Origin: a phage
Sequence record: PQ826431.1
DNA: 64,000 nt
Reading direction: 5' to 3' (one strand)
Both the position numbers and the translations under genes were made by a program. The stretch's first letter is position 1, and every line of letters starts with the position of its first letter. The notes beneath the pieces are model-generated. The model saw nothing but the letters and a program-made list of their open reading frames with translations, made no database searches and was not told the origin of the DNA. Positions 22,312 through 63,904 of this stretch are shown here, piece by piece.

Positions 22312-24465
22312 ATGAAACAAGCTATATTTACTGTCACGCGAGACAAGAGAGTAAATGCGAGTTCATTTAACTACACGACTGTTGACGGAACAGCAGTCGC
22401 TGGTAGAGATTATATTGCAAAATCGGGAACACTTGTGTTCCCTGATGATGCTGATTCTGCTACTATTGTGGTTGAAGTATTTGAACGACCAAAGAACTCA
22501 ATAGATCTTAACTTCTCCCTCCAAGTTTCAGGGATTAGTCAAAATAACATGATGGTTGAAACAACCATCAATTGTATTATAACTACTATCCAAGAAAATA
22601 CTACTCCAATAACTTGGACTACAAAAGACGTTAAAATGTTCTCTCCTATGTATTGGACAATAGATTCTCAAGCAACGGAAAGTTGTTCTATTGTATCTCA
22701 TGGAGACTCTTTTACTGCAAGATTTGTAAACAGAACAACAGCAGGTTTGGCAGGGGTTATCTGGAGCACAGTTGACAAATATGACCATAAAGGTGTTGGG
22801 TATTTGCCTCACACAGATTTAAGTTCAGAGAAACTTTGGTTTAAAATGGAAATTAGTCAAAACATGCCAGGTTTTAAAGAAGAACCTTTGGTGCCGACTT
22901 TAACTGTAACTCTCCTGGATAAAAGTGTTCATTATGTCAGTTTAGGATTCTACGCTTCAGATATTTCAGAAGATGGTAAAACAGCCACAATCAAGTTAGA
23001 TTTTGGTAATATCTTTTCTGGCCCTAATAATGATATTCCTTTGGATATGAGTGCTGTAGATAATATTTTCTTCTCTTTGATTACAGCAAGGTATGAAGAA
23101 ATAGAAGAGATTGTGCCTATTGATAGTCAAGAGGCTTGGTTTACTTTCACTCTTCTTGAACCTACTTCTGGTTACAGTATGATGAAAGTCAGCAACCTTG
23201 TCCAGCCTGAACATGATATTCGTATGTGCACATCTTATGATGATATGTATAACCTGACTCCAGAGAGAGTTATTTATAATACATATGCGCTAGGTTATCG
23301 TGGGATGATTAACCATTATAACGGAATGTCCCATTATTATGAGTTCTCATGGAATGGAACATCTTGGGCTTTAAATAGATCTGTCTTCCTGAATCCTGCT
23401 ACAGAAGCTTGGCTAAATAGTTTCCATTCTATAGCAAACGAGAAGGGCTACACAATAATGAACTCTTTAAGTTTTGAATTGATGAGCACAGTTTGTCCTG
23501 TAGAATGGGTCCAGCATGATTGGAACGATGCTCTTGCAGCAACAGGGTATAAGCCTCCTAGTTACGTGTTGTCTCCAACTATTGACGAAGGCATGGAATA
23601 TTTGCAAAATGTTATTAACAAAATAGCATCTATTTCTCAAGCTAATAACATTCCAGTCGTCATTCAAATTGGTGAACCTTGGTGGTGGTATAATACAGCA
23701 AGTAAAATGCCTTGTATATATGATTACACTACCAAACTGGCATTCAATACAGAAACAGGCTTATTTGCACAAGATGCAGGAACAATAGATAATTATAAAA
23801 CAGGAACGCCATTTGACGAATACTATGCATTTTTGTCTCGTAAACTAGGGTTAAGAGTTACAAAGTTTGCAACAGACACCAGAGCAACTTACCCAGGAGC
23901 TAAAGTAACATTGCTTCCGTTCTTACCATCGATTATCGGCAACGGTTTGATGGAGAAAGTTAACTTTCCGTCTGATTACTACATTCCTGAAGCTTTTGAT
24001 TTTTACTGTTCAGAGTGTTACGACTGGCTTCTGGAAGGTAAGATGATGAAAGCATTTGATGCAATTACCATACCACATGAAAAATTAGGTTTTGAATATT
24101 CTGATATTCACTATCTTTCGGGTTTTGTTCCAGATGCTACTCTTGCACCTTTGTATGGCTTCGATCCTGAATCAAACTACCGCACGTATCTTTGGAAAAT
24201 GATTATAGGTAATATAGTGTTGAACGCCAATAAGTTCAATGGGCTTACACAATACATATGGGCCTATCCTCAAATAATGCATGATTCTATCACGGTAGTT
24301 AATTCTCAATCCCAAGTTTTCTATATGGGTAACGTGCCTTTGAACGTTTATTTACAGGATATCACTCTTAAACAGGTAAATGTTGAGATTGCCACCATAA
24401 GTGGAATTACATTAGCCACTAAATCTGGAGAAGATTTAGTAACAACGCAAAAATTTTATATATAG
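22312..24465 (+). CDS. structural protein with N-terminal Calx-beta-like domain
   Basis: N-terminus TVTRDKRVNASSFNYTTVDGTAVAGRDYIAKSGTLVFPDD resembles Calx-beta signature. Confidence 0.4.
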   Translation: MKQAIFTVTRDKRVNASSFNYTTVDGTAVAGRDYIAKSGTLVFPDDADSATIVVEVFERPKNSIDLNFSLQVSGISQNNMMVETTINCIITTIQENTTPITWTTKDVKMFSPMYWTIDSQATESCSIVSHGDSFTARFVNRTTAGLAGVIWSTVDKYDHKGVGYLPHTDLSSEKLWFKMEISQNMPGFKEEPLVPTLTVTLLDKSVHYVSLGFYASDISEDGKTATIKLDFGNIFSGPNNDIPLDMSAVDNIFFSLITARYEEIEEIVPIDSQEAWFTFTLLEPTSGYSMMKVSNLVQPEHDIRMCTSYDDMYNLTPERVIYNTYALGYRGMINHYNGMSHYYEFSWNGTSWALNRSVFLNPATEAWLNSFHSIANEKGYTIMNSLSFELMSTVCPVEWVQHDWNDALAATGYKPPSYVLSPTIDEGMEYLQNVINKIASISQANNIPVVIQIGEPWWWYNTASKMPCIYDYTTKLAFNTETGLFAQDAGTIDNYKTGTPFDEYYAFLSRKLGLRVTKFATDTRATYPGAKVTLLPFLPSIIGNGLMEKVNFPSDYYIPEAFDFYCSECYDWLLEGKMMKAFDAITIPHEKLGFEYSDIHYLSGFVPDATLAPLYGFDPESNYRTYLWKMIIGNIVLNANKFNGLTQYIWAYPQIMHDSITVVNSQSQVFYMGNVPLNVYLQDITLKQVNVEIATISGITLATKSGEDLVTTQKFYI

Positions 24466-48669: not shown

Positions 48670-48948
48670 TTAAAATGGTTCGTTAGTCTCCATCATATAT
48701 TCTGCTTCTAGTTCTTCCATGTGCTTTCTAAATTGGAAAGCAATTTCTGCTACAGTTACATTTAAATCTTTTTCAAAAACTTCTGTAGAGCCTTCGTAAA
48801 AACGAATACCGTCAATTAAAAGCCCTCCGTGGTAATCCCAATCACTTTCACGAGAAAGCGGGTTAGGCTCTTCATAATAGTAATCCACCTCCACGACTAA
48901 GGCTTTCCCGTTACAAGTGGTGTATTCAAAATCAAAAGTGTTAATCAT
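48670..48948 (-). CDS. hypothetical protein
   Basis: 92 aa ORF. Confidence 0.3.
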   Translation of the reverse strand: MINTFDFEYTTCNGKALVVEVDYYYEEPNPLSRESDWDYHGGLLIDGIRFYEGSTEVFEKDLNVTVAEIAFQFRKHMEELEAEYMMETNEPF

Positions 48949-49892
48949 TATAGCTCCTCAAATAAAAGTCTACGACGCTCATTCAACACATCAATGTGAT
49001 AATGAGTCCTGACATACTTAGCTAATGCTAATCCTTTCTCCATGCAAACATCGGGAGCACTTAATAAGTATTCCGTAATATCTTTCCACTCGGAAGGTGT
49101 TTCAGCAAAGAACAACAGATCTTTAAACTCTTGTGTATGATAATTCTCACGAGGAGAACAGATCAAAGGTAAACCCTTAGCACCTGCCTCAAGAATTTTA
49201 AGATTGCTTTTTGCATTATTAAACACGTTATCAATCAGTGGCGCAAGACTTATTTGATGACCATCGTAAGATTCCATGTAGTTGGCATATGGTCTTACAC
49301 CTTCATAAACACAAGTTGGTGCTACATTTTCTCTGATTACAGACCATTCACGACTACTTAAAACTTCAGAATCCCTACGAAAACCACATATTGTAAGATC
49401 TTTACCAAAATCGGGCAAGATAGCCAAATCTTGCTTATGTGTTTCACTTCCAGCCCACACTAATGGAGTTTTGGAGTAGCGATCACGGGTCAACACAAAT
49501 TGACCTTCGTCATAAGGAAGTCCATTAGGGATTATGTGCACATTATCATTGTATTGTGAAAGTTCAACTTGCAAGGCAGGTGTCGTAGTTGTAACAAGAT
49601 CACTGTGCTCTAAAAACCATTTTAAATGTTCACGAATACCTGATTCAAAAATACCTTCTAACATGTGTCCTTTTGGAATAACTAAAGAGTCATCCAAATC
49701 CATAACCATTTTAAAGCCTAGGTTTTTAAGGGCTAAAAAGCCCTCTTTACCTTTTGTTGGCACTCCGTTAAAAACGAAAACATTGTATTTAGGTTGTGAA
49801 GAGAACTGCCTTGAGTAAGGCAGCACTACCCTATGGAAATCGCAGACACTATAATTGATTCCGTTACGATTGTCAAGAATTATTTGTCCCAT
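48948..49892 (-). CDS. glycosyltransferase-like protein, paralog 1
   Basis: C-terminal LKILEAGAKGLPLICS; clear paralogy with next gene. Confidence 0.45.
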   Translation of the reverse strand: MGQIILDNRNGINYSVCDFHRVVLPYSRQFSSQPKYNVFVFNGVPTKGKEGFLALKNLGFKMVMDLDDSLVIPKGHMLEGIFESGIREHLKWFLEHSDLVTTTTPALQVELSQYNDNVHIIPNGLPYDEGQFVLTRDRYSKTPLVWAGSETHKQDLAILPDFGKDLTICGFRRDSEVLSSREWSVIRENVAPTCVYEGVRPYANYMESYDGHQISLAPLIDNVFNNAKSNLKILEAGAKGLPLICSPRENYHTQEFKDLLFFAETPSEWKDITEYLLSAPDVCMEKGLALAKYVRTHYHIDVLNERRRLLFEEL

Positions 49893-49899
49893 ACTTCAC

Positions 49900-50847
49900 C
49901 TACAAACTTTCAATAACCTGGCGTCGCAACTCGTTTGCATCTGCCAGATTATAATGTGTTCGAACATGTTCAGCCAAGAACAAGCCACGATCTTCCCGAT
50001 AGTTTGGATTGCGAAGAAGCTTAACAATTTCGTAATGCCATTCTGCTTTATTCTCTGCGTAAGCAACAGCGCGAGCATCTACAGGGTTAAAATAAGGTAA
50101 TACCTTAGAACAAACAATCGGAATACCTTTTGCTCCAGCTTCTAGGATTTTGAGATTACTTTTACAATTATTAAAATCATTATCTACCAAAGGAGCTATA
50201 GCAATAGCATGACTTTCGTAAACACTCATGTAATTATCTAAATCTTTTACAGCGGCTTTATATTTGGCATTTGGTAAATTTCTGCGAATCTTAATCCACT
50301 CTTGTCCCGTGATGCTCTGCGATGCTTCATACCCCGCAATAGTAAGAAGTTCATCATCGAAAGTATTAGAGACTAGTCGTAAATCGGGTTCGTGACTAGC
50401 ACCGCCAGCCCATACAACAGGGGTACCGGATGAACGATCATTTGACAAAGTGAATTGTCCGCTATCAAAAGGAAGTGCATTTCGGATCACAACGACATTT
50501 CTATTTAAGTGACGGATCTTGTATGCCAAGTATTCCGTAGTTACAATAACCACATCAGCAAGCTTAACCATAGCCACAATAGCATGAGTGTTTGACTCGT
50601 ATAGACTCGCTAAGTAATGTTCTGGATTAAGTTGGTAGAAATCATCTAAATCTACAACAACCTTAACACCTTGACGTTTCAAAGATAAAACGTATTCTGC
50701 ACCTTTAGAGTGGATACGGTTAAACACAACAATATCTTTCTTAGGTTGAAAATTATTGTTGTTAAATGGCATAACAATACGATGATAGTCACAACCACTA
50801 TGAGGTTTTGCATCAATTTTTAGTTTAGACCATTTTTTATTTGACAT
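49900..50847 (-). CDS. glycosyltransferase-like protein, paralog 2
   Basis: ORF track 49900-50886; likely start at internal ATG (MSNKKW) preceded by GAGGAGG; shares CDYHR, VVDLDD, LKILEAGAKGIP with paralog 1. Confidence 0.45.
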   Translation of the reverse strand: MSNKKWSKLKIDAKPHSGCDYHRIVMPFNNNNFQPKKDIVVFNRIHSKGAEYVLSLKRQGVKVVVDLDDFYQLNPEHYLASLYESNTHAIVAMVKLADVVIVTTEYLAYKIRHLNRNVVVIRNALPFDSGQFTLSNDRSSGTPVVWAGGASHEPDLRLVSNTFDDELLTIAGYEASQSITGQEWIKIRRNLPNAKYKAAVKDLDNYMSVYESHAIAIAPLVDNDFNNCKSNLKILEAGAKGIPIVCSKVLPYFNPVDARAVAYAENKAEWHYEIVKLLRNPNYREDRGLFLAEHVRTHYNLADANELRRQVIESL

Positions 50848-51520
50848 GTGCCAGTGCCTCCTCATAGGAAATTCGGATTTTCCCATTTTTAATATCCTCT
50901 AAAGATGCTTTATATTCTTCCCAGTTAATCCCGATAGCAGCTTCTTTCTCTTCTTTTGTCAGATTAGCAAAAGGCATAGGGTTGTTTCCAAAAACATCGT
51001 CTGGGTGGATATAAGCCATGATACGAAGTGGACAAGGTGTTGCCTGAATACCATGATTCAAACCAGCAGCTTTCAAACGGTGTCCCCATTCAGCATCTTC
51101 AAAACCATAGCCGTGAGTGTAAGGACGGAAATAACCCATCTTCTCAACAACGGCACGAGAATACATTGCAAATTGACACATTGCAAGTTCCCAGAGAATA
51201 ACTTCTCCTTTGCTTCCAACAACTTTATCTTTGAAATACTCCGGCATACCAAAGAAATCCCATCCTCCAGAGACAGCTTGATCTACAAAGTATGTTTCCC
51301 ATCCCTCCATGACTGGGTAGCAATCGTCGTCAAAAATAAACCAATAATCATAACCTTCTTCATAAAACTGGTGCATAAGTTCATTCCTGGCATAAGCTAC
51401 ACCTTTACGATCTGGATCGTTGAATACTCGAAAATCTGCACGTGGATCTGTTACAAGGTAGTCTTTAAGTGGACGGACACCTACAGTGATAACACCCACT
51501 CCAATTTTAATATTTTCCAT
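50837..51520 (-). CDS. glycosyltransferase (GT-A-like, DxD)
   Basis: FIFDDDCYP acidic motif after hydrophobic strand. Confidence 0.4.
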   Translation of the reverse strand: MENIKIGVGVITVGVRPLKDYLVTDPRADFRVFNDPDRKGVAYARNELMHQFYEEGYDYWFIFDDDCYPVMEGWETYFVDQAVSGGWDFFGMPEYFKDKVVGSKGEVILWELAMCQFAMYSRAVVEKMGYFRPYTHGYGFEDAEWGHRLKAAGLNHGIQATPCPLRIMAYIHPDDVFGNNPMPFANLTKEEKEAAIGINWEEYKASLEDIKNGKIRISYEEALAHVK

Positions 51521-51528
51521 TTTCTCTC

Positions 51529-52092
51529 CTAAATAGTTTTACTGTGATCATGACAGTGTAATAAATGATGTATAGACCGTTGAGGATTTGTTTGACCTAA
51601 TCTGTAAATGTGAAACAGATACATTCCCCGCATCAATCCTAACCTCTTTCCTTTTTCATGTAAAGTGCGAGAGAAAATTAAGTCGAATTGGATAGATTTT
51701 TCTTCGAAAGGAATTTCATTCCACAATGATTTTCTAAAAAGCAAGAAGAAACCTGCCAGAGGTGTTCCGAAAGGAACTTCTTCAACACTCACTTTATGAT
51801 ATTCTCTTGCAATCTTAGCATATTCTATATGGTTTAGAATATCTGGATCATCGTTAATTTGGTTAGAGAAAAGCTGATAACCACTGCCTAACCTGTTACA
51901 AGTTGCACCTATTACATCAAAAGGCGGGTTTGACATAACAAGCTCTTCAAGCATAGATGGTTGATCAGGTAGGAGGAACATTGTATCGGTATCTCTTAAA
52001 CACACCCAACTATCATCTGGAAGAACGGCAATGGCTTCATTGATAGCCTTGCCGATATTTCCTGTCAGATAGGGAGTAATATAATAAATCAT
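51529..52092 (-). CDS. putative glycosyltransferase-like protein
   Basis: LRDTDTMF DxD-like motif. Confidence 0.3.
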   Translation of the reverse strand: MIYYITPYLTGNIGKAINEAIAVLPDDSWVCLRDTDTMFLLPDQPSMLEELVMSNPPFDVIGATCNRLGSGYQLFSNQINDDPDILNHIEYAKIAREYHKVSVEEVPFGTPLAGFFLLFRKSLWNEIPFEEKSIQFDLIFSRTLHEKGKRLGLMRGMYLFHIYRLGQTNPQRSIHHLLHCHDHSKTI

Positions 52093-53414: not shown

Positions 53415-54017
53415 TTATGGACATTCATACCATTCTTTTTTACCACCGAAGGCCATCACCACATCACAAATATCCAGACCAGCTTTACCTACACCATATG
53501 CTTTCAGCTTCCATTCCCCATCTTCACGAACCAAGGAAGCCACGTGGCAGATTGTGTTGCCAGCTACTTCAGGAGCCAGGAAGTCAAAATCCAGAATTTC
53601 CACATTGCGCTCGGAGTCGAAGATTTTAAGCATACCTTCAGAAGCATGACCAAAACGTTTCAGACCTGTATCATCATCAATGGTCAGAACAAAGGCAATC
53701 TCTTGTGCATCAGGAGAGATTTTAGCCAGAGTAATATCAATCTGCTCCATGCTGCCAGTTCCATCACGAACATCGTCACCAGCGAAGGTAGAACGTTCAG
53801 GATCAAACTTGTTAGCATAGCAAACCAGATGACGTGCAGACAGCATTTCAGGATTACCAGCGGCATTGTGACGACAAACCAGTGCACTTACATCCAGATC
53901 CAGTTTAGAATCAGATTTCCAAGAGAATTCCAGGCGCAGTTCTTTCAGAGCCGGAGCAACTTTCTTCAGGGAAATTTTTTCGCTAGAGCCTTTTTTCAGG
54001 GAAATTTTATCAGTCAT
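53415..54017 (-). CDS. terD: TerD-family stress protein
   Basis: N-terminal KISLKKG, DLDVSAL, EIAFVLTIDD, GEWKLKAYGVGKAGL match canonical TerD blocks (compared with E. coli TerD from memory). Confidence 0.8.
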   Translation of the reverse strand: MTDKISLKKGSSEKISLKKVAPALKELRLEFSWKSDSKLDLDVSALVCRHNAAGNPEMLSARHLVCYANKFDPERSTFAGDDVRDGTGSMEQIDITLAKISPDAQEIAFVLTIDDDTGLKRFGHASEGMLKIFDSERNVEILDFDFLAPEVAGNTICHVASLVREDGEWKLKAYGVGKAGLDICDVVMAFGGKKEWYECP

Positions 54018-54032
54018 CTTTTGTCTCCTCTA

Positions 54033-54302
54033 TTATTTAAGTGTAATACCAGTTACAGTCAATTCTACTTCCAAAAGCTTAGATGTGTTTTGGATTGATA
54101 CTAATTGTGCATGATGGTTTAGTTCTACAGCAGAATAATCATTTTCCCCATCATCTACTTTTAAATAAACAATGATTTCACTAAGGTCTAAACCATTTTC
54201 GTCAAATGCATTTTCATAGACGAAAGTATCTCCTACATCCAAATCTTTAATGGTAAGGCATCGTTTATTTACTTTTTGCTCATCAATTTCGAAGTTTAAC
54301 AC
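54033..54302 (-). CDS. small protein, paralog B of a phage-specific pair
   Basis: Shares DLDVGDTF ... ELTVTGITLK with the 55324-55602 product. Confidence 0.4.
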   Translation of the reverse strand: MLNFEIDEQKVNKRCLTIKDLDVGDTFVYENAFDENGLDLSEIIVYLKVDDGENDYSAVELNHHAQLVSIQNTSKLLEVELTVTGITLK

Positions 54303-54531
54303 TTCTTCCTCCTAATGTTATCTCCGGTTTGTATATACGAAGAATTATAGCATTTTCATTTTCTTTGTCAACCCATTCTTCATAATCGGGCCATACATGA
54401 ATCTCCACTCTACTTACAATATCTTCCATTCGCACAGTCCCAATGAAATACTCTTTGAGACTGCGCATAATGAAAGCTTCTCTCTCGCGCCAATAATTTT
54501 CTATGACTTGAGAGGCAAGCTCGTCGATCAT
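54283..54531 (-). CDS. hypothetical protein
   Basis: 82 aa ORF. Confidence 0.3.
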   Translation of the reverse strand: MIDELASQVIENYWREREAFIMRSLKEYFIGTVRMEDIVSRVEIHVWPDYEEWVDKENENAIILRIYKPEITLGGRSVKLRN

Positions 54532-55322
54532 TTTTTAGCACCTACTTTAACAACCCACTCTCCGAACTCTTCAGATAAGAGTTTGTCATAAAGCTCTGAA
54601 TCTGTCAAGTCTAAATCTTTAATGCCAATAAAACCAACATTATCATAAGCATTTGCCAGTTCTTTCAGGAACCCAAACTTCTCATTACCAACGCCAACCA
54701 TGAACCAATAAATAGGTTTATTCTTATTCTCTTCAATAAGACGACGAACAGCACTAGGATCACCATTCTCACCATCCGTCTGGAAGAATACAACACCAGG
54801 GGTAACGTCAGCACCTGGTTCAGATACAGCTACAACTTTTTCACGCTCTACAGACACTGTTTCAGTTTTACCAAGCAGACGATTAAAGAAGCCTTTCTTT
54901 GGAGCCTCCTCTTGTACCACTTGTTTAGTGGTAATATATTTGGTAACAGTGCCAAAATACTCATCGTAGATATCTGCCATTACAGGGGCGTAATTTGTTC
55001 CACCTCCGATACGAACATTACGCATACATTTACCAACATAGTCATCGTAAACGTCTGCTGTTGCTGGAGTAAGCTCTTGGGAACTCGTATTGAAGGCCCA
55101 CATATCAATTTGTTGATTATCGTCGAACAGCATACCAAAAGGAAGCAGTTTACCTACAAAATCACTCACTACCCCACTAGAATATAGACCATGCATACTA
55201 CCAGAAATATCTAGAGCACATGCTACACGAAGAACAATCTTACCTTCATTCAGGTTCTTATTCTTTTTCAGAGAGAAAGCAAGGTTTTCTTGACGTTTTT
55301 TCAGGCTGATTTTCTCGGACAT
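54528..55322 (-). CDS. vWA-domain protein, TerF C-terminal-like
   Basis: MIDAS motif ALDISGSMHG; N-terminus KISLKK like TerD. Confidence 0.6.
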   Translation of the reverse strand: MSEKISLKKRQENLAFSLKKNKNLNEGKIVLRVACALDISGSMHGLYSSGVVSDFVGKLLPFGMLFDDNQQIDMWAFNTSSQELTPATADVYDDYVGKCMRNVRIGGGTNYAPVMADIYDEYFGTVTKYITTKQVVQEEAPKKGFFNRLLGKTETVSVEREKVVAVSEPGADVTPGVVFFQTDGENGDPSAVRRLIEENKNKPIYWFMVGVGNEKFGFLKELANAYDNVGFIGIKDLDLTDSELYDKLLSEEFGEWVVKVGAKK

Positions 55323-55323
55323 A

Positions 55324-55602
55324 TTATTTCTCCTTCTTAAGTGTAATATTGGTAACTTCTAAATCTACTTCCACCATATTTGTATCTGGTGGGATGCAAT
55401 GAGTATAGCCTCGTTGTGCTAGTGATCCATTAATACAAATCGCACTGTTTGTGGAATTTTTAATGAACACCAAGTTACGGTAGGTATCCAACCCTGCGTC
55501 TTCATAGGCATCATAATACATGAATGTGGCCCCTACGTCAAGATCTTCGAAAGCAATAGGTAAATCCTGACTTTTTTCTTCTTGAATATTGAATCTAAAC
55601 AC
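55324..55602 (-). CDS. small protein, paralog A of a phage-specific pair
   Basis: ORF track 55324-55668; likely GTG start after GAGGAGG; DLDVGATF ... LEVTNITLKKEK. Confidence 0.4.
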   Translation of the reverse strand: MFRFNIQEEKSQDLPIAFEDLDVGATFMYYDAYEDAGLDTYRNLVFIKNSTNSAICINGSLAQRGYTHCIPPDTNMVEVDLEVTNITLKKEK

Positions 55603-56158
55603 GCATACCTCCTCTACCAATTTTGAAGCCCAAATCGTAAGCTTCCTTAGTGATCTTTTGTAACTCACTTATAGGAAGTGTTACAAGAGGATCATCTTCT
55701 TCAATTTCCATCTTGTCATCTTCTGTTTCAATGAGAGTATTATGCACTTTGTGATAAGGGTTGTCAACACGTTTAAACTTATTCTTTTCTGTGCTGAAAA
55801 AACAATCTGGATCTTCTTCACCATCACCCCAACCTTGGTTAGGATCTCCGTCAGATTGTTCTGTAGGGATTTCACCTGTAAAGTACTCTTCCAGCACCAT
55901 AGCAATACCGTCCCTTGGATTTGAGGAATGCATTAAATCACAAACCTTACCCCAATCCATAGCCCATTCGAACCGTTCACGAACGCCATTTTCATCCTCC
56001 TTTCCAGAGAAAACACAACCATAACTATCATAGTTGCCATACATCTCTTCAATAACAACACCGTCCTTCAAAAGAAAGAGGTAGCAAGGTGATCCGTCGA
56101 AAGAAGTAGAAAGGGCAGCTTTGCCCGATTCTTTGCACAAAAAGCTAAAACAACCCAT
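55595..56158 (-). CDS. hypothetical acidic protein
   Basis: 187 aa ORF. Confidence 0.3.
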   Translation of the reverse strand: MGCFSFLCKESGKAALSTSFDGSPCYLFLLKDGVVIEEMYGNYDSYGCVFSGKEDENGVRERFEWAMDWGKVCDLMHSSNPRDGIAMVLEEYFTGEIPTEQSDGDPNQGWGDGEEDPDCFFSTEKNKFKRVDNPYHKVHNTLIETEDDKMEIEEDDPLVTLPISELQKITKEAYDLGFKIGRGGMRV

Positions 56159-56361
56159 TACAAACCCTCCTTCAGATTATCAAGAGCTACAGTGGTTTCA
56201 CAAGAGTCTCCATAAGTTTTATGATGTTCCAGAAAAGCTTCGGGTCCACCCCAGTCATTATCTTGTGTATTCCAGCCATCAATAAAAGCATCTTCAATGA
56301 TTGTGATCAGTTCTTGTCGGGTTAACTGGATAATATTAGGATCGTTATCGTAGTTAAACAT
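56158..56361 (-). CDS. small hypothetical protein
   Basis: 67 aa ORF. Confidence 0.25.
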   Translation of the reverse strand: MFNYDNDPNIIQLTRQELITIIEDAFIDGWNTQDNDWGGPEAFLEHHKTYGDSCETTVALDNLKEGL

Positions 56362-56527
56362 CTTCTTCCTCCTCTAAAATATGGAACCCGTAATTACAAT
56401 AATCCTGAAAGGTTTCGTGCGCAAGATCTTCTATATCCTCTTGAGACATATCATCTTCAATTTCGATATCCACAACCTCATTGCATCCACACCAAGCAGT
56501 TTCAATATTCACTCGTAATGTTTTCAT
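56354..56527 (-). CDS. small Cys-containing protein (57 aa, not in ORF track)
   Basis: ATG overlapping upstream stop (TAATG). Confidence 0.25.
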   Translation of the reverse strand: MKTLRVNIETAWCGCNEVVDIEIEDDMSQEDIEDLAHETFQDYCNYGFHILEEEEDV

Positions 56528-56724
56528 TACTCCTCCTCCTCATTGAAGTCAATATCTGCAAGGAGTTCGAATTTACGGAAGTTACGACAACCTTCATAAA
56601 TATAACAATCACGACAAACTGCTAGAACACTTGCGGGATATATACCTCCCATCGGTGCGAATCGTTTTTCGTCATCATAACGGACACCAATGTCTTCATC
56701 AATTATATAGATACGGATTCTCAT
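56527..56724 (-). CDS. small hypothetical protein
   Basis: 65 aa ORF, CRDC...GC. Confidence 0.25.
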   Translation of the reverse strand: MRIRIYIIDEDIGVRYDDEKRFAPMGGIYPASVLAVCRDCYIYEGCRNFRKFELLADIDFNEEEE

Positions 56725-57833
56725 TTACCAAGCCCTCGTTTCACAGCAGCTACCATCCCGTCTTCCAGAGATTGAACTTCATTAATATAATCAACACGAG
56801 CAGCACGGGCTTCCGTATTGATGCGGTTAGTTTCTTCCAACATCTTAACCAAGTTTTCCTGATCGTGACGCAGAGTTTCAATATCCAACACTTGACGGTT
56901 AGCCAGTGCTGCTGCTTCGATCTGATTCTGTGTGGCAAGATCGCTACCCAGTTTAATTGCCAGGTTAAATTCATCAAGAACGTTATTCTGCGTCTCTGCT
57001 GCTTTCATTTGACGTAAGCTCTCGATATACATTGAGAAGTTAGCAGAGTAAGCAGGAATAACATTATTTACTATGTTACGCGCAGATCGCATTAAGCTTG
57101 CAGAAACTTTTTGCATACCTTGTACACGCGGTCCCATTTGGACACACAGTAGGCGCAATGCTTTTAAATCTGCAATACGAATCTCCAGAAGATCCAAAGT
57201 ATCTCGGATCACTTGTCGCTGTTCTACTGCATCTTCTGGAAGAGCAGCCAAAGCTTGTTCTTCTTTTTCATAGGTTGCTGTTAGAAGCTGCATATCTCGG
57301 TTCAAACTTGCAGCATATTGTCCAATAGCTTGATGCAGCTTTTCAAGATATACCAAGGAATCTTCTTCTTTGCGAATATCCATTTGAAGGTTCTTTACCA
57401 ACTCTTCAATACGGTTATTAACATTATCAAACTCCCCGAACAGGTCTTCTTTCATACCCATAACTTTTTTAATGAGTTTAGTAATACCCTTGCTTTGTTT
57501 AATAGAGTTTGGATCAAGTTGTTTTGCCTGTTTAATCAAAGCTGTGAGTCGTTCACTCATCTGATCGCCTTGATTACTACGTTGATGTTTTAACACCTCG
57601 GCATTCAAGGAACGCAAGGTTGTTCCTGCCTCTGCCCCAATCTCTTCAATCTCTTGTCGGGTCATAGAAGGCAAAACTGGAACTTCTTGCGGTGCCGCTG
57701 GTGCATAAACAGGACTGGCATCTAACACGCTTGGAGCGAATACAGATTTACTTGCATCTGTTGTTGCAGCGAATACACTCATTTCAGACTTCTTCTGACC
57801 ACCAGTAGCTGCTTTTAAAAATGGACTTGTCAT
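56721..57833 (-). CDS. telA: TelA-like toxic-anion-resistance family protein
   Basis: 370 aa, all-helical, acidic; call rests mainly on size, composition and the TerD/TerC/vWA neighbourhood. Confidence 0.4.
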   Translation of the reverse strand: MTSPFLKAATGGQKKSEMSVFAATTDASKSVFAPSVLDASPVYAPAAPQEVPVLPSMTRQEIEEIGAEAGTTLRSLNAEVLKHQRSNQGDQMSERLTALIKQAKQLDPNSIKQSKGITKLIKKVMGMKEDLFGEFDNVNNRIEELVKNLQMDIRKEEDSLVYLEKLHQAIGQYAASLNRDMQLLTATYEKEEQALAALPEDAVEQRQVIRDTLDLLEIRIADLKALRLLCVQMGPRVQGMQKVSASLMRSARNIVNNVIPAYSANFSMYIESLRQMKAAETQNNVLDEFNLAIKLGSDLATQNQIEAAALANRQVLDIETLRHDQENLVKMLEETNRINTEARAARVDYINEVQSLEDGMVAAVKRGLGK

Positions 57834-58420
57834 TCTTCATTCTCCTCTTCTGCATCTCTTATATATGGTGAAACACCGTACTCTTTAGCTACTTTAACCC
57901 AATCATCCCATTTATACAACCATAATTTTCCTTCAGTTCCTTCTTTATCTGATTTCAACCACATGTTAGGTTGCTTGCCTGGGTACATGCGATTAGGTTT
58001 ACGATTATAACCTCTAACACATCTTGTCGCAAACCTATCTACCAGAACAAGAACATATTTATATTCGTGGTTCAACGGCTCTTTGGAAGTGGCTTTAGGA
58101 TTAGCCCCTAACTCTGCTGCCAGTTTTTGCCAATGAGCACCGTGTCTACTAAACTTACCCATACAACCATCAATAGCATGAGCAATTTCGTGCTTCATTG
58201 TATCCACGATCATATCTCTTGTGGAGTTCTTATGCAAGTGCCAATTTACAACAACAATTTTATCTCGGTAGTTGCACCAACCGAAAGAGTTATTCACTTT
58301 GTTTCTAACACAAGCTTTATATCCTGCTTCACGTAACATGTTGTAGTAAACAGGAAAATCTTCTTTTATTTCCTGCATCACTTCCCACCACAAGAGTTGC
58401 AAGTCTCTCTCGGTATGCAT
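57830..58420 (-). CDS. SprT-like zinc metalloprotease domain protein
   Basis: HEIAH zinc-binding motif followed by HGAHW. Confidence 0.5.
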   Translation of the reverse strand: MHTERDLQLLWWEVMQEIKEDFPVYYNMLREAGYKACVRNKVNNSFGWCNYRDKIVVVNWHLHKNSTRDMIVDTMKHEIAHAIDGCMGKFSRHGAHWQKLAAELGANPKATSKEPLNHEYKYVLVLVDRFATRCVRGYNRKPNRMYPGKQPNMWLKSDKEGTEGKLWLYKWDDWVKVAKEYGVSPYIRDAEEENEE

Positions 58421-58423
58421 AAC

Positions 58424-59017
58424 TTACACCTTAAAAGCGAAATGCGTGGTCGTGGCTTCAAAATCAGGGCCAGATAAACTTGCACTGAAATCTGAAATAT
58501 TTGTAATTAAAAAGCTTTTATGCATACCTAACACAGCCACGCTTTCAATATCTTCTACTAACATTTCAATCATGTTAGAAACATGGCTGAACGTATAGTT
58601 TTGTTTTTTGATGGTGTAGAAAGAAAGACTCCCACCTGCTGTATAAGATACCTCTTCAAAATCTTTAATCGTATATTGTGTGCCATCAGTAAAGAAAATG
58701 GTAGCTTTATTAGTAGCACGTTTCTTGTTTTTTGGTCCTTTTTTACGTTTACTGCGAGTAGGCAAACCGTTTGGAAATACTGTAGCTACAAATTCTTCAG
58801 GAGAAACCTCCTTACCGAAATCATAACCGTAAGAAACAGCGTCTATAAACTCGTCGTCTTCATTTTTAAAATAATGAAAATAGGGCCAATTTGAGAGATT
58901 ATCGAGCATCTTATGCTCATCCACAGCAGAGAACGTATCCCTCAAAGCACGTGTGATTTGCAAAGCATTAGGCAAACTTTTAACACCTGTAATGGAAGTA
59001 CGAATAGAAATTGTCAT
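58424..59017 (-). CDS. hypothetical protein
   Basis: 197 aa ORF. Confidence 0.3.
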   Translation of the reverse strand: MTISIRTSITGVKSLPNALQITRALRDTFSAVDEHKMLDNLSNWPYFHYFKNEDDEFIDAVSYGYDFGKEVSPEEFVATVFPNGLPTRSKRKKGPKNKKRATNKATIFFTDGTQYTIKDFEEVSYTAGGSLSFYTIKKQNYTFSHVSNMIEMLVEDIESVAVLGMHKSFLITNISDFSASLSGPDFEATTTHFAFKV

Positions 59018-59031
59018 TGTTTTTCTCCTTA

Positions 59032-59469
59032 TTAACGTCGCTTGCTACGAGATGAACTCTTTTTACTTAAAGGGCTATTGTAAGATTTACGAGTTGTATA
59101 GCTACTATTTGTTTTAAAAGTTTGTCTCGGCTTTTCATAAGTTTTTATCTCTTGTTTAGGCTTACCATAAAAATTAGTTTTCGGTTTAGGTGTATTATAA
59201 TGCTTATTAATAATCGTTCTGTTATCGTTATAATCCCCACTGTTACGATTACTACCACCACTCATCATATGCCCTAACAACATACCTGTAGCAAACTCAC
59301 CAACACCGCTACTACTAGAACCGCCACCATTGTTGATAATAGTTGTATCTCCGTCAGATCCTTGTTGAGCGTATTGTTGAGGAGGTTGTTGGTATTGTGC
59401 AGGATTTGTTTCATCCTCGCAAGCTGTTAAAAAGATACAACCAATTAAAATCAGGGCTAGTTTTTTCAT
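59032..59469 (-). CDS. lipoprotein
   Basis: ORF track 59032-59544; likely start at MKKLALILIG after AGGAAAG RBS; lipobox LTA-C; Gly/Ser/Asn-rich mature part. Confidence 0.5.
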   Translation of the reverse strand: MKKLALILIGCIFLTACEDETNPAQYQQPPQQYAQQGSDGDTTIINNGGGSSSSGVGEFATGMLLGHMMSGGSNRNSGDYNDNRTIINKHYNTPKPKTNFYGKPKQEIKTYEKPRQTFKTNSSYTTRKSYNSPLSKKSSSRSKRR

Positions 59470-59656
59470 ATTTGCTTTCCTCATTTTGACTATTAATACA
59501 TCTGTGTTTGAAATCTCCAGAGAAGCAATAAAGTTGCTCTCCATCTCGGTATAAACTCACTTTACTGCCGTTGATTACGCTTGTCAATACAAAAATTACA
59601 ACAAACAACCCTATTGCAAAACAAATATTTTCAAACACAATCAACAAGTATTTCAT
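59411..59656 (-). CDS. small membrane protein (uncertain)
   Basis: 81 aa with one TM segment; overlaps lipoprotein start by about 60 nt. Confidence 0.2.
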   Translation of the reverse strand: MKYLLIVFENICFAIGLFVVIFVLTSVINGSKVSLYRDGEQLYCFSGDFKHRCINSQNEESKYEKTSPDFNWLYLFNSLRG

Positions 59657-60003
59657 TTTAAAAATACCTCATCATCAGTTTCATTATCCCAGAAGAACAA
59701 ATCCCAACCATTCGGATCATTCCATTTGGCTGCTGGAGAAGTCCATATTTGTTCGATATCAATATTCAAAACTTCACCGTTTCGTTTTGAAACAGCTTTA
59801 GTTAATTCCCAACGAGATACAGGCTCTACTTCCCCTGAACCACTCCCACAACAAGCTACCACGTTAGGAGGCAAATTAATTGGATCTTTGGTCACGATCA
59901 TAACGCTTACCCCAGGGTAAACTTTTGAAAGATAATCTAAAACGTAATCCACATCACCAGATAAATCCCAAACAAGTTCTTGAATTTCATCAAAATTATT
60001 CAT
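59653..60003 (-). CDS. hypothetical protein
   Basis: 116 aa ORF. Confidence 0.3.
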   Translation of the reverse strand: MNNFDEIQELVWDLSGDVDYVLDYLSKVYPGVSVMIVTKDPINLPPNVVACCGSGSGEVEPVSRWELTKAVSKRNGEVLNIDIEQIWTSPAAKWNDPNGWDLFFWDNETDDEVFLK

Positions 60004-60045
60004 AAGTCTCTCCTATAAAATAGCCTCCCGAAGGAGGCTCATCTA

Positions 60046-61020
60046 TTAAACAGCAGCTTCTTCTTTTTCAGGGAAGATAAAGCTTGCAATAACACCAAGA
60101 GCTAATGTGCTTAGAACAATCATCAGACTTACGTTAGGGGAAATATCATGCGGGAGGAATGACCATTTGGCATGAAGTGTTTCACCGAACGGGTGATACA
60201 TAAGTTTAGCACCGACAAACACCAGAACCACAGCAACAGCTTTCTCTAAGTGAACCAGATATTTCACAGCTACACTTAACACAAAGAAAAGTGCACGTAA
60301 ACCAAGAACAGCCATCAGCATTGCAGAATAAACTAGCAGAGGTTCTTGTGTCACACCGATCACAGCCGGAACTGAATCAAAAGAGAAGACAATATCTGTA
60401 AGCTCAATAACAAACACACAAAGAAGAGCAGGAGTTGCATATTTAATACCATTCTTAATGGTGATGAACTTTTCACCATCCAGTGCATTGTGCACAGGCA
60501 GAACTTTACCTACTAAACGAACAGCCCAATGCTTAGAGTAATCAATATCCTCTTCTTCGTCACCACCTTTGATGATAGCCACGGCAGACCAAGCTACAAT
60601 CAAACCGAACAACACTTGGACCGACCAATGAAGGTTAAACAAAGCGGTCCCTGCTGCAACAAAAATACCTCGGAAGACAATGGCTCCTGCAATCCCCCAA
60701 AGTAAAATCTTATGTTGGAGATGTGTGCTCTTAATTCCAAAGCTTGCAAAAATTGCCATGAACACCATCAGGTTATCTACAGAAAGACTCTTTTCCAACA
60801 CATAGCCACTTAGGAAAAGCGCGGCAAACTCTTTACCATGTTCTACCCAAATGAATGCGTAATATCCTAAAGCTAAAGCAATCCAAAAAACAGACCAAAG
60901 CAAAGCAGATTTAATTCCAATTTCTTTATTCTCTTTATGACCAAAGAAATCGATACCAATAGACAATGCCAAAATACCAACTAAAACAACTACATCAATA
61001 ATTGGGAAACCAAGTTGCAT
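60046..61020 (-). CDS. terC: TerC-family integral membrane protein
   Basis: Multi-pass membrane protein with signature YVLEKSLSVDNLMVFMAIF. Confidence 0.7.
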   Translation of the reverse strand: MQLGFPIIDVVVLVGILALSIGIDFFGHKENKEIGIKSALLWSVFWIALALGYYAFIWVEHGKEFAALFLSGYVLEKSLSVDNLMVFMAIFASFGIKSTHLQHKILLWGIAGAIVFRGIFVAAGTALFNLHWSVQVLFGLIVAWSAVAIIKGGDEEEDIDYSKHWAVRLVGKVLPVHNALDGEKFITIKNGIKYATPALLCVFVIELTDIVFSFDSVPAVIGVTQEPLLVYSAMLMAVLGLRALFFVLSVAVKYLVHLEKAVAVVLVFVGAKLMYHPFGETLHAKWSFLPHDISPNVSLMIVLSTLALGVIASFIFPEKEEAAV

Positions 61021-61037
61021 TCTTTTCTCCTCTCTTT

Positions 61038-61096
61038 GCGGGGAACTATTCCCCGCTTCATGTGATACATCTTACTCTTTTTAAGAACTATGTCAA
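61038..61096 (-). promoter_or_regulatory. putative promoter plus 5'-UTR hairpin upstream of TerC gene
   Basis: On - strand TTGACA, 16 nt spacer, TAAGAT, then GCGGGGA-loop-TCCCCGC hairpin and AGAGGAG RBS. Confidence 0.4.
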
Positions 61097-61099
61097 CAC

Positions 61100-61321
61100 T
61101 TATTTTGTTGAATGAGAGGAAAAGATTCCTCGTAATACAGCCAGAATAAACGAAACACAAACCACGGTCCAGAAGGTTACTGGGACAGTGATATCTGCAT
61201 GACCCATAACTTCAGCAACATAGTTGTAAGCCAGCAACAGTAACCAAGCTGGAATCAAACTAAGCATAAAAGCAATAACAAAAAAGCTTACCACTGCAAC
61301 AATACCTGCAAAAACACCCAT
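61100..61321 (-). CDS. small membrane protein
   Basis: 73 aa, two hydrophobic helices. Confidence 0.35.
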   Translation of the reverse strand: MGVFAGIVAVVSFFVIAFMLSLIPAWLLLLAYNYVAEVMGHADITVPVTFWTVVCVSFILAVLRGIFSSHSTK

Positions 61322-61333
61322 ACTAATCTCCTC

Positions 61334-61807
61334 TTAAAGTTTATAAATAGTCACATCGTGACCTGTTTTTACTAAAGTTTCTTCAATCATCACTTGGATG
61401 ATAGCCCAATTACCTCCAGCATATCCAGCGCCAATCATAGGTAAGCCGATCTTACATTTTTTGTCACGGAGAAGCAAATCGTTAGCCATAGCTATTAGTG
61501 CATCGTAAAGTGCATCATAGTCCAACTGACGACCTTTAGCATTGTATCCGTAACGGTATTGCCCGTATAGATTATATACCAAAGGGTCTGATTGTTCGTC
61601 TGGCACCCCTAAACTAAAACAACCTAGTTTACTTTGATCACCAGCCATTGTGTCTAAGTCTGCTGCATATGCGTAAGGAAATGCTTGTTTGATTTGTGGG
61701 GCAATACCTGCCCCCATATTACACATACAGTTGCAACAATGAGCAATAACAGTTACTTCACCTGCTTTAGCGGCATCAATAAGATTACCTCTTTTCATTT
61801 TAAGCAT
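61334..61807 (-). CDS. macro-domain protein
   Basis: VIAHCCNCMCNMGAGIAPQIKQAF fits macro pattern; ORF track extends to 61912 but AAGGAG-supported ATG at 61807 avoids overlap with upstream gene. Confidence 0.45.
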   Translation of the reverse strand: MLKMKRGNLIDAAKAGEVTVIAHCCNCMCNMGAGIAPQIKQAFPYAYAADLDTMAGDQSKLGCFSLGVPDEQSDPLVYNLYGQYRYGYNAKGRQLDYDALYDALIAMANDLLLRDKKCKIGLPMIGAGYAGGNWAIIQVMIEETLVKTGHDVTIYKL

Positions 61808-61820
61808 TTTTAGCTCCTTA

Positions 61821-62648
61821 TTACAGAATGTGTTGTTTTGTGTAACGATCCAAGAATTCAAAGTTTTCAGCATACTTTGAAATTCGGTTGTAACCTTCTC
61901 CCAAACATCCAAAGAAAAGTTGCTCTACATAGTAATGTGGCAATTGGCTAAGAATGATTTTGAAGTCTTCATGATTTTGGCCCATAAGATACTTAATAGG
62001 ACGAACAAGACACTGTGCATCACGTTCTTCATTAATCATTTTAACAAACGCTTCTGGTGTATTAATGTAGTTAAAATTCAGTTTAGCTTCGGTATCTGCT
62101 TGATTACCTTCGTATTTTGCAAAATACAAGAAGTAAACATCATTTTTAACTTGATTTTCATCAAGGATCTCAATCAGTTTGTCTTCATGCGTTCCAGTGA
62201 TATTTACATCATCAATGAATACAAGCTTCTTATCACCCCAGAATTCTTTGTTGCAGTAGAATGTATCCCCATCAATAAGTTTCTTACGACTAGCTTTATC
62301 CAAGAAACCATAATCGTTGATATAGCTAACTTTACGATGAATAATGTCCAGTTCTGCTGAACGACCTTGATCATATTGTGATTGCAACATATTAAAATAA
62401 TTAATAAAATGATTTGTCATCATTGTTGCAGCATTATGCACATGGTTATAAGGAGAAGGAATGATAACAAATTGTTCCCCAATATGTTTCATTGCCACTT
62501 GAGCAAAAAACTGAAGTGCCAATTCTTTACCCATACGACGCGCAGCTTGGTTACTACCAAATTTTAATTTTGAATAATCTTGGATATCAAAAGTAGCAGT
62601 TTCCAGGTCATCAAATTTATTTGCAAAAATTTGAGTTTGATTACGCAT
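61821..62648 (-). CDS. phosphoribosyltransferase-domain protein
   Basis: PRPP-binding motif KLVFIDDVNITGTHEDK. Confidence 0.55.
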   Translation of the reverse strand: MRNQTQIFANKFDDLETATFDIQDYSKLKFGSNQAARRMGKELALQFFAQVAMKHIGEQFVIIPSPYNHVHNAATMMTNHFINYFNMLQSQYDQGRSAELDIIHRKVSYINDYGFLDKASRKKLIDGDTFYCNKEFWGDKKLVFIDDVNITGTHEDKLIEILDENQVKNDVYFLYFAKYEGNQADTEAKLNFNYINTPEAFVKMINEERDAQCLVRPIKYLMGQNHEDFKIILSQLPHYYVEQLFFGCLGEGYNRISKYAENFEFLDRYTKQHIL

Positions 62649-63297
62649 TTACAATTTCTCCTCTTTTAAGTTTCTCTAGTAAGTCGTTAGGGTTCTTAAT
62701 ATGACAGAAGTTAAATCCTAAGTCAACACATTTTCCATCATATTCTTCACTATCGCCTACGTGCAACACTTCGTGCCCTAACAGAGGGATCGGAGAATAC
62801 GTGAGCGTGCGAGCAAAGAATCGCGGATCTGGTTTACAAAGTAAAGCTTCATCCGAGAAATGGGTGAACTCAAAACAATTCCAACTATCAAACTTACAAG
62901 CACGACGCAGGATATCCCCTGATATGAAGTTGGTATTGCTCTTAATACTCAAATCATAACGCCCTGAAAGATACAGCAAGTATATCGGCAGATCCACGGC
63001 TACGTGTGGTGGAAACTTAAGGAACCACTGTTCACACTCGAAACGAAGCTTTGCAGACTTCCAAGGCGTTATCCCAAGTTCAGAACCAAGTCTTTCCCAG
63101 GCGTATGCTGCACACTCGGCTTTGCCTTGAAGTGCTGCATTATCCAGTTCCTTTTTGATCTTTTTATAAGCTGCTCTTGCTTCCACTTCCGTAATATCTC
63201 CATATTTTGCGATAGTCCAGGCTCGCATGTCTGCGTAATTGGAGTTTGCTGTGATCAGTGTGTTCCATACATCAAAAGAGATATGTTTAATAGTCAT
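62641..63297 (-). CDS. HAD-superfamily hydrolase
   Basis: Motif I ISFDVWNTLI, later K-containing CKPDPRFF and acidic HVGDSEEYD. Confidence 0.55.
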   Translation of the reverse strand: MTIKHISFDVWNTLITANSNYADMRAWTIAKYGDITEVEARAAYKKIKKELDNAALQGKAECAAYAWERLGSELGITPWKSAKLRFECEQWFLKFPPHVAVDLPIYLLYLSGRYDLSIKSNTNFISGDILRRACKFDSWNCFEFTHFSDEALLCKPDPRFFARTLTYSPIPLLGHEVLHVGDSEEYDGKCVDLGFNFCHIKNPNDLLEKLKRGEIVNA

Positions 63298-63298
63298 A

Positions 63299-63904
63299 TT
63301 AAGCCCACCATGCGTCTAAGTTAAGATTACTGTCCACTACCACTTGTTCTATGTGGTAGCCTTTTATCTGTATCCCACTGTTCAAGAGCATATCATACGC
63401 TTCATTGAAACGCAACTTATCTTCTGCGGAATATAAGCGAGCATTATAAAATCGGTAATCAATTTCTTCAGCATTAGAAGAAATACGGAAGAAGTTTGTT
63501 TCTACTTCGGGATCACTTGCTGAAGTCTTAATGTGAACTTCTCCGTAATTTTCTTTACTTAGATCCATGAAAAGAACACAGGCAACATGTTTAAACATTC
63601 GTTCCAGTTTGTAACGAACAACATTGAAACCTGCATTCTCAAGTTTTTCTACACACTGCAACATTAAAGTAGTGTCGAGATCGCTTTGATACTTTGTTAA
63701 CATACGATCACGTTGAGACTTTGTATCCCGATGTAAATCAATTGTTGTGCATTTGGCACCAATAATCTTAGCTGCTTTCATCAACTCTTCAGAACTAACG
63801 TTAGATAAAGTAAGATGAAAATGAGCTTTCCACACTTTTTTAGCAGGGACACCAAAAGATTTATCCCCACTATTCGGCATGTTGACTACTACACTATGTT
63901 GCAT
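63299..63904 (-). CDS. hypothetical protein
   Basis: 201 aa ORF with GAGGAG RBS; contains HLTL, no confident family assignment. Confidence 0.3.
   Translation of the reverse strand: MQHSVVVNMPNSGDKSFGVPAKKVWKAHFHLTLSNVSSEELMKAAKIIGAKCTTIDLHRDTKSQRDRMLTKYQSDLDTTLMLQCVEKLENAGFNVVRYKLERMFKHVACVLFMDLSKENYGEVHIKTSASDPEVETNFFRISSNAEEIDYRFYNARLYSAEDKLRFNEAYDMLLNSGIQIKGYHIEQVVVDSNLNLDAWWA

Follow-up and report, generated by a model that had tools for sequence, protein, structure and literature searches.

A biosynthetic module of phosphoribosyltransferases (PRTases) and HAD enzymes, associated with tellurite-resistance (Ter) systems of stress and conflict, was reportedly described by Anantharaman, Iyer and Aravind in 2012, in whose account TerB, ATP-grasp and C-C lyase proteins are said to be components of bacterial Ter clusters. 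The present analysis concerns a PRTase gene (61821-62648, minus strand) and the macrodomain gene that follows it (61334-61807, minus strand) in a 64,000-nucleotide stretch of phage DNA (sequence record PQ826431.1), the whole of which is referred to as the window. The PRTases and HAD enzymes of Ter systems have been predicted to make a nucleotide or nucleoside derivative (PMC7824862 section 3.4.10; PMC5512222; PMC8115787), and their arrangement in Acinetobacter phage ME3 was described by Iyer et al. 2021 (Viruses 13:63, PMC7824862). That paper writes of phage Ter systems generally with reference to "certain other related smaller tailed phages" and proposes that these systems act in competition with superinfecting phages. 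For the macrodomain gene a close described system is AdfM. This is the name given to Tk.4 of phage T4, the loss of which sensitises T4 to DarTG2 (bioRxiv 10.1101/2025.11.20.689424), and the AdfM of the chimallivirus PhiKZ removes DarT2 marks from DNA in vitro (PMC13309987). The bacterial protein SCO6735 strips thymidine-linked ADP-ribose, the product of DarT, from DNA and also removes protein ADP-ribose, and relies on Asn27 and Gln85 without the Lys/Asp dyad of TARG1 (PMC9411070).

The whole window is Phapecoctavirus DNA and is 98-99% identical to phAPEC8 and many relatives, from a phAPEC8-like E. coli myophage type of ~148 kb; the part from 59 to 64 kb matched dozens of deposited genomes at 98-99% identity. 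When the two genes were compared with the systems above, both were found to be further members of known families and not a new pathway for nicotinamide adenine dinucleotide (NAD). The macrodomain and PRTase_3 matches, both from sequence comparison, are far beyond chance. With a little better than even confidence, the locus is read as two functionally separate modules lying side by side, a HAD and PRTase_3 pair of the Ter type and an AdfM-type macrodomain protein.

The phosphoribosyltransferase and its HAD partner

The PRTase gene begins with ATG and encodes a protein of 275 amino acids, residues 11-266 of which matched the Pfam family PF15610, PRTase_3 ("PRTase ComF-like"), with an E value of 1.8e-41 and 142.7 bits against a cut-off of 28.7. 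The first-pass annotation of this DNA had named a PRTase of the phosphoribosyl pyrophosphate (PRPP) type from the motif VFIDDVNITGT, and this was confirmed: the motif forms the PRPP loop at residues 143-153 (nucleotides 62190-62222), and the loop, LVFIDDVNITGTH, fits the pattern of a hydrophobic run and two acidic residues followed by T-G-x-T. Residues D146, D147, T151, G152 and T153 were invariant in an alignment of 37 homologues, as were many others. A large protein collection yielded 242 homologues, with the PF15610 annotation on all 120 that were listed.

The AlphaFold (AF2) model of the PRTase had a predicted local distance difference test (pLDDT) score of 92, and a Foldseek search with this model returned the type I PRTases HGPRT, PyrR and ComFC (7p0h) with a probability of 1.0, template modelling (TM) scores of 0.3-0.5 and sequence identities of 10-17%. 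The sequence gave no match to PF00156 (Pribosyltran) at E <= 0.1, no match to any NCBIfam model and no match to a PDB sequence below E 0.79. Nor was there a NAPRTase or NAMPT_N match in Pfam, and the fold matches were to type I enzymes only. The known nicotinamide and nicotinate PRTases NAMPT, NAPRT and Namat are type II enzymes. Homology and fold comparison together place the protein in the PRTase_3 subfamily with a type I fold, and it does not group with salvage enzymes. An identity as an ordinary purine or pyrimidine salvage enzyme (HGPRT, APRT, OPRT, UPRT) was rejected on the missing PF00156 and NCBIfam matches and on TM scores of only 0.3-0.5, while an identity as a nicotinamide or nicotinate enzyme (NAMPT/NadV, NAPRT, Namat) was rejected because there was no profile match and the fold is type I. 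The deposited label "putative orotate phosphoribosyltransferase" likewise found no support from PF00156, NCBIfam or PDB sequences. Judged from the model and the conserved residues, the protein is a type I PRTase that looks catalytically competent and is distant from the ordinary salvage enzymes.

The Pfam name "ComF-like" and the appearance of ComFC among the fold matches would also suit a ComF-like nucleic-acid-handling protein that binds or modifies DNA, with the HAD enzyme processing nucleic-acid termini, and PRTase domains do occur in DNA-related conflict proteins (PMC5512222). The protein has no additional DNA-binding domain, its full PRPP and catalytic signature is invariant, and it is constantly paired with a capped HAD-IA enzyme of small-molecule type and with Ter membrane proteins, all of which makes a nucleic-acid role very unlikely.

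The HAD gene that had been reported beside the PRTase is indeed present (62641-63297, minus strand) and overlaps the PRTase start by 8 nt. It encodes a HAD-IA hydrolase of 218 amino acids that matched phrog_14393 at 8e-117 and gave weak matches to Pfam Hydrolase and to the NCBIfam REG-2-like/YjjG models. Of the four motifs of HAD phosphatases (the DxDx(T/V) nucleophile and acid, S/T, K and an acidic pair), motif I lies at residues 8-14 (F-D-V-W-N-T-L) with a conserved nucleophile, D9, and motifs II-IV are conserved as well. In the PRTase_3-linked HAD family the Asp+2 position is taken by Trp, Tyr or Leu, with Trp in both this phage and PDB 2om6.

The pairing was examined in 42 PRTase_3 loci (20 of them bacterial) taken from collections of phages and bacteria, which were searched by tblastn and with profiles made for this analysis. 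A HAD homologue was directly upstream of the PRTase_3 gene and on the same strand in 41 of the 42, usually in the company of TerD, TerC, TelA and vWA-TerF genes, and these loci span Stephanstirmvirinae-like, jumbo and T4-like phages, Rhizobium/Ensifer, Bacteroidales, a Peribacteria metagenome-assembled genome and Pedococcus. In unrelated large phages the pair is found among genes for TelA, vWA-TerF-like, TerC and TerD proteins, with TerD directly after the PRTase. In Tannerella and Pedococcus it lies in classical ter clusters containing TerD paralogues, TerY vWA with TerY_C, PP2C, a kinase, TerC/DUF475 and a second PRTase_3. The Pedococcus locus (L027 9908-11628) has two tandem PRTase_3 paralogues after the HAD gene, in agreement with published mention of "two PRTases of the Ter system", where this phage has one.

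The window itself carries a near-complete Ter set. All four Ter genes lie on the minus strand within 53415-61020 and encode a TerD-domain protein (53415-54017; Pfam TerD, E 3.2e-28), a vWA-TerF-like protein (54528-55322; Pfam PF10138, E 1.6e-37), a member of the toxic anion resistance protein family TelA (56721-57833; Pfam TelA, E 3.2e-33) and a TerC-family integral membrane protein (60046-61020; Pfam TerC, E 3e-40). Several small unknown genes are interspersed, as is a gene for a SprT-like metalloprotease (57830-58420, minus strand). TerB, ATP-grasp and C-C lyase proteins were not found among the window proteins scanned, and no PADLOC model matched the PRTase, HAD, TerD, TelA, TerC or vWA proteins. 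Single-sequence searches with the phage proteins located no Ter genes near the Rhizobium/Ensifer PRTase loci, which may reflect a limit of sensitivity. In a T4-like phage contig of 198 kb (L004 9345-13168) the HAD and PRTase_3 pair is accompanied by an RNA ligase, a DUF2828/DUF7788 protein and a 2H-SAK phosphoesterase and has no Ter genes, showing that the pair is able to move independently of the Ter membrane proteins. On this comparative evidence, the HAD and PRTase_3 genes are the predicted "nucleoside-like metabolite" module of Ter systems, which is already known from phages.

In such a module the type I PRTase would use PRPP and Mg2+ to place 5-phosphoribose on a base-like nucleophile, and the translationally coupled HAD enzyme would then remove the phosphate to give a nucleoside-like small molecule. 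The membrane-associated Ter proteins may respond to this molecule as a signal or ligand; in a phage, these proteins could exclude superinfecting phages or buffer the infected cell against stress. Each step here was deduced from the protein families or adopted from predictions in the literature.

The macrodomain protein and its probable substrate

The macrodomain gene encodes a stand-alone macrodomain of 157 amino acids of the ALC1-like/TARG1/DarG/SCO6735 class. The match to Pfam Macro was borderline, at 22.4 bits against a cut-off of 22. Searches of PDB with the single sequence gave SCO6735 at 2.5e-12, BT1257 at 1e-8, DarG at 2e-6, TARG1 at 3e-6 and Poa1p at 1e-3, and a profile of the family matched BT1257, SCO6735, TARG1 and DarG with E values of 3e-21 to 8e-10 (TARG1 at 3e-17) and yeast Poa1p at 2e-9. 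These comparisons define the subtype as the ALC1-like class and phrog_335, with SCO6735 as the closest solved relative. Tk.4 of phage RB51, which stood in for T4 Tk.4 in the comparisons, is 34% identical to the macrodomain protein by BLASTP (E 3e-20), and phrog_335 was the best match of both proteins, over the same region of the profile.

An alignment of 33 sequences of the family showed N26, Q83, G34, G126 and G128 to be invariant and G32 to be nearly so (at least 90%). N26 and Q83 align with Asn27 and Gln85 of SCO6735. As far as alignments can tell, the residues of the ADP-ribose site are kept, and the macrodomain protein probably does not lack the ADP-ribose pocket. The PADLOC model for DarG matched the protein at 6e-10. 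An assignment as DarG proper (NCBIfam NF048014) was nevertheless rejected, as the score was 34.9 bits against a cut-off of 250 and covered residues 3-49 only, and the protein of 157 amino acids has no C-terminal domain. No darT-like gene was found beside the macrodomain gene.

The first-pass annotation had suggested relevance to NAD-depleting host defences. Its defence aspect is retained, in that the macrodomain gene is very probably relevant to ADP-ribose-based host defence; its NAD aspect is not, since the target of Tk.4/AdfM is the ADP-ribosylation of DNA, not the level of NAD. The same phage type also encodes a Sir2 NAD-dependent enzyme, seen in the EF1-1 genome at 22448-23263, which lies outside the window and ~100 kb from the macrodomain gene.

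A role on small molecules or proteins was weighed against a role on DNA. The protein could be an ADP-ribose-1''-phosphate phosphatase, which is the activity behind the "phosphatase" label of phrog_335, or an O-acetyl-ADP-ribose deacetylase that assists RNA repair or the phage Sir2, or it could remove ADP-ribose from proteins. Such roles would agree with the profile matches to Poa1p and TARG1, with the hydrolysis of protein ADP-ribose by SCO6735, and with the Sir2 gene elsewhere in the phage genome and the SIR2 and Thg1 genes near some relatives. The distance of that Sir2 gene counts against them, as do the best matches of the protein, which are to the SCO6735/BT1257 subgroup and T-even Tk.4; furthermore, T4 Tk.4 is the only phrog_335 member with a reported phenotype, namely DarTG2 resistance. 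An enzyme for small molecules or proteins in place of a DNA de-ADP-ribosylase is considered rather unlikely.

In the favoured reading of two separate modules, the macrodomain protein would be an AdfM-type orphan antitoxin, a stand-alone ADP-ribosylhydrolase of the DarG/TARG1/SCO6735 class. It would strip the ADP-ribose set by host DarT2 on thymidines of the phage DNA and so restore replication. The homology and the conservation of key residues are observed directly, and it is from these that we infer the activity and the substrate.

Gene order and the question of a shared pathway

Every gene between 53 and 64 kb is on the minus strand, and the genes considered here belong to a packed run in the order p201, HAD, PRTase, macrodomain, a membrane protein of 73 amino acids and TerC. 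The p201 gene (63299-63904, minus strand; 201 amino acids) is the first of a tight run of four, and its end is 1 nt from the HAD start. The macrodomain gene directly follows the PRTase with a correctly spaced ribosome-binding site, as had been stated in the first-pass annotation: the PRTase stop codon is TAA at 61821-61823, the ATG of the macrodomain gene at 61807 comes 13 nt later, and a GGAG ribosome-binding site read from the sequence (61814-61817, minus strand) precedes this ATG with a 6-nt spacer. The TTG start at 61912 given for the macrodomain gene in the mechanical list of open reading frames was rejected; it overlaps the PRTase, and ATG 61807 is the real start. A consensus scan found no convincing terminator inside the run from p201 to the macrodomain gene, and these four genes are probably co-transcribed.

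Despite this close packing, the comparative evidence suggests that the PRTase and the macrodomain protein are probably not functionally linked. Relatives of the macrodomain gene, including T-even tk.4, were present in 2,980 of 50,697 phage records and PRTase_3 in 157, ~19-fold fewer. The macrodomain gene was within 1 kb of the PRTase only in Stephanstirmvirinae-like loci, and even in this lineage two loci (L029 and L030) have an extra gene between them. The 20 bacterial PRTase_3 loci were all without a homologue of the macrodomain protein or of p201 within 10 kb. A macro domain is encoded by about 40% of medium-sized phages (PMC9503650), and some lineages should therefore have a macrodomain gene in the neighbourhood by chance. 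The two modules probably lie next to each other because accessory and conflict genes cluster in this phage lineage, and not because they share a pathway; there is little chance of a coupling specific to the lineage.

The first-pass annotation had proposed that the PRTase, macrodomain and HAD proteins together synthesise or recycle a nucleotide like NAD or ADP-ribose, with relevance to NAD-depleting defences. Such a pathway would oppose these defences in the manner of phage NAD reconstitution. The tight packing of the genes, the conserved pocket residues of the macrodomain protein and the status of the PRTase as other than a standard salvage enzyme are in line with this proposal. So are relatives of the macrodomain gene (49% identity) in two NAD/ADP-ribose islands (L044 461-11066 and L045 2902-10694), which hold NUDIX, NAMPT, NADAR, Macro, HAD_SAK_2, SIR2, a Prs-like gene and Thg1. 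The absence of PRTase_3 from these islands, in contrast, favours the independence of the two modules. The NADAR and macrodomain genes are adjacent in L045 and separated by one small gene in L044, and may represent a paired anti-DarT1/anti-DarT2 arrangement. The proposal was not upheld for the present locus and is highly improbable: the PRTase is a Ter-associated PRTase_3 with a type I fold, no NAMPT-, Prs- or NMNAT-like gene was seen among the proteins scanned from 52.8 to 64 kb, and PRTase_3 co-occurs with HAD and Ter genes, and with a macrodomain gene in no bacterial locus and not in most phage lineages, so the macrodomain protein is not a conserved partner.

A different form of linkage would make p201, HAD, PRTase and macrodomain one pathway in this lineage, in which the macrodomain protein, perhaps with p201, binds, trims or regulates a ribosylated Ter metabolite or contributes ribose phosphate from ADP-ribose to it. 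The order and tight spacing of the genes are kept across Phapecoctavirus- and Justusliebigvirus-like loci, macrodomain homologues lie 6-8 kb downstream of the HAD and PRTase pair in two other phage lineages (L004, and L006/L037), and relatives of p201 are fused to NUDIX and HD_4 nucleotide hydrolases. Set against this are the absence of p201 from two loci (L028 and L032), the gene inserted between PRTase and macrodomain in L029 and L030, the empty result for the bacterial loci, the frequency of macro domains in medium-sized phages and the active-site signature of the macrodomain protein, which is that of ADP-ribosyl-bond hydrolases. A single pathway of this kind is unlikely. It is also quite unlikely that the Stephanstirmvirinae run of p201, HAD, PRTase_3 and macrodomain forms a single pathway joining the Ter system to ADP-ribose-based immunity. 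Here the macrodomain and p201 proteins might, for instance, liberate or trim a ribosyl compound derived from ADP-ribose or from a defence, and this compound would either be converted by the PRTase and HAD enzymes or control the production of the nucleoside-like Ter signal. If true, this pathway would be the first means of approaching the Ter metabolite chemically.

Several points weigh against the reading of two separate modules. The HAD enzyme lacks the Asp+2 general acid and may not be a simple nucleotide 5'-phosphatase, and the first module as a whole rests on published computational prediction. The substrate of the macrodomain protein could differ from that of AdfM, because proteins (for SCO6735 and TARG1) and ADP-ribose-1''-phosphate (for Poa1p) are also substrates of macrodomains of its class, and its identity to Tk.4 is only 34%. 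Within the lineage the gene order around the macrodomain gene is kept down to about 48% macrodomain identity. The spacing, which ranges from the 8-nt overlap to 13 nt, and the probable co-transcription are compatible with functional coupling.

The first gene of the run, p201, gave no Pfam or NCBIfam match, and its residues H28, H30, T32, H124 and K126 are invariant. Two PADLOC "AbiEi" models matched it over its full length at 4.7e-13. A search of 1.84 billion representatives gave 256 relatives, among which NUDIX fusions recur and HD_4 and HTH fusions occur once each; one phage homologue is immediately upstream of Acb1 and has a NADAR gene close by. In BFVD its structural relatives were uncharacterised viral proteins only, from giant viruses and from phages, ME3 among them. 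Classification as a 2H phosphoesterase, which has two HxT/S motifs and the 2H fold, was rejected when p201 failed the fold test. The gene occurs in some but not all of the related phages, and p201 looks like a candidate nucleotide-directed, possibly anti-defence, protein.

Between the macrodomain gene and TerC is the gene of the predicted membrane protein of 73 amino acids (61100-61321, minus strand), which has a hydrophobic sequence and matched phrog_16065 at 6e-43. The 79-nt gap between this gene and TerC (61021-61099) contains a sigma-70-like promoter match, TTGACA, 16 nt and TAAGAT, at 61096-61069 on the minus strand. No yybP-ykoY or other Rfam element was found upstream of the TerC/Alx-like gene, the region from 52 to 64 kb being without Rfam matches at E <= 1. 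Directly 3' of TerC, a consensus scan located a strong terminator-like hairpin with a T-rich tail (60022-60039, minus strand), where the transcription unit probably ends. The Ter region is followed, just downstream, by four glycosyltransferase genes in succession (~48948-52092, minus strand).

Comparison with known systems

The public labels "orotate phosphoribosyltransferase" and "phosphatase" mislead for many E. coli and Klebsiella phages, some of which are considered for therapy, and "Ter-associated PRTase_3" with a HAD partner and "AdfM-like macrodomain" would be better. Phages of Phapecoctavirus and Justusliebigvirus are predicted to resist DarTG2 by means of the macrodomain gene. With its minimal Ter module, a single PRTase with a single HAD enzyme, this tractable E. 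coli phage would also be convenient for identifying the "nucleoside-like metabolite", a question since 2012.

When compared with phage NAD reconstitution, whether by NadV/NAMPT with NMNAT or by Adps with Namat, the locus shares the use of phage accessory genes, PRPP-type chemistry and a setting of ADP-ribose and NAD conflicts. It differs in that its PRTase is a type I PRTase_3 and that no Prs-like or adenylyltransferase partner was present among the scanned proteins. The resemblance to the Ter PRTase/HAD module is closer, with the same Pfam PRTase_3 family, a HAD gene directly upstream, TerD, TerC, TelA and vWA-TerF neighbours and a large tailed phage as the carrier. The version in this phage is minimal, with one PRTase and one HAD enzyme, and is flanked by the macrodomain gene and p201, neither of which occurs in the bacterial clusters.

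For the macrodomain protein, DarG of DarTG2 has a homologous macrodomain (PADLOC 6e-10; PDB 5m31, 2e-6), whereas the phage protein has no C-terminal DarT-binding domain, has Gln in place of the catalytic Lys80 and has no adjacent darT. The closest solved relatives, SCO6735 and BT1257 (PDB 5e3b and 2fg1), share the equivalents of Asn27 and Gln85 and the glycine-rich loops, and likewise have no counterpart of the Lys84/Asp125 dyad of TARG1. These are bacterial chromosomal proteins, and by alignment the phage protein differs from them in having Cys for Val25 and in lacking the mobile-loop Lys89. The AdfM proteins (T4 Tk.4 and PhiKZ gp104) are, like the protein of this phage, stand-alone phage macrodomains of ~155 amino acids, and it falls into phrog_335 together with T-even Tk.4. 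It has the conserved Asn and, as in Tk.4, a Gln at the position of the catalytic lysine, whereas the PhiKZ-type AdfM keeps the DarG-like lysine and is only distantly related to the macrodomain protein described here. The genomic setting also differs from that of T4 AdfM, the gene lying between vs and tk in T4 and between the PRTase and TerC in this phage.

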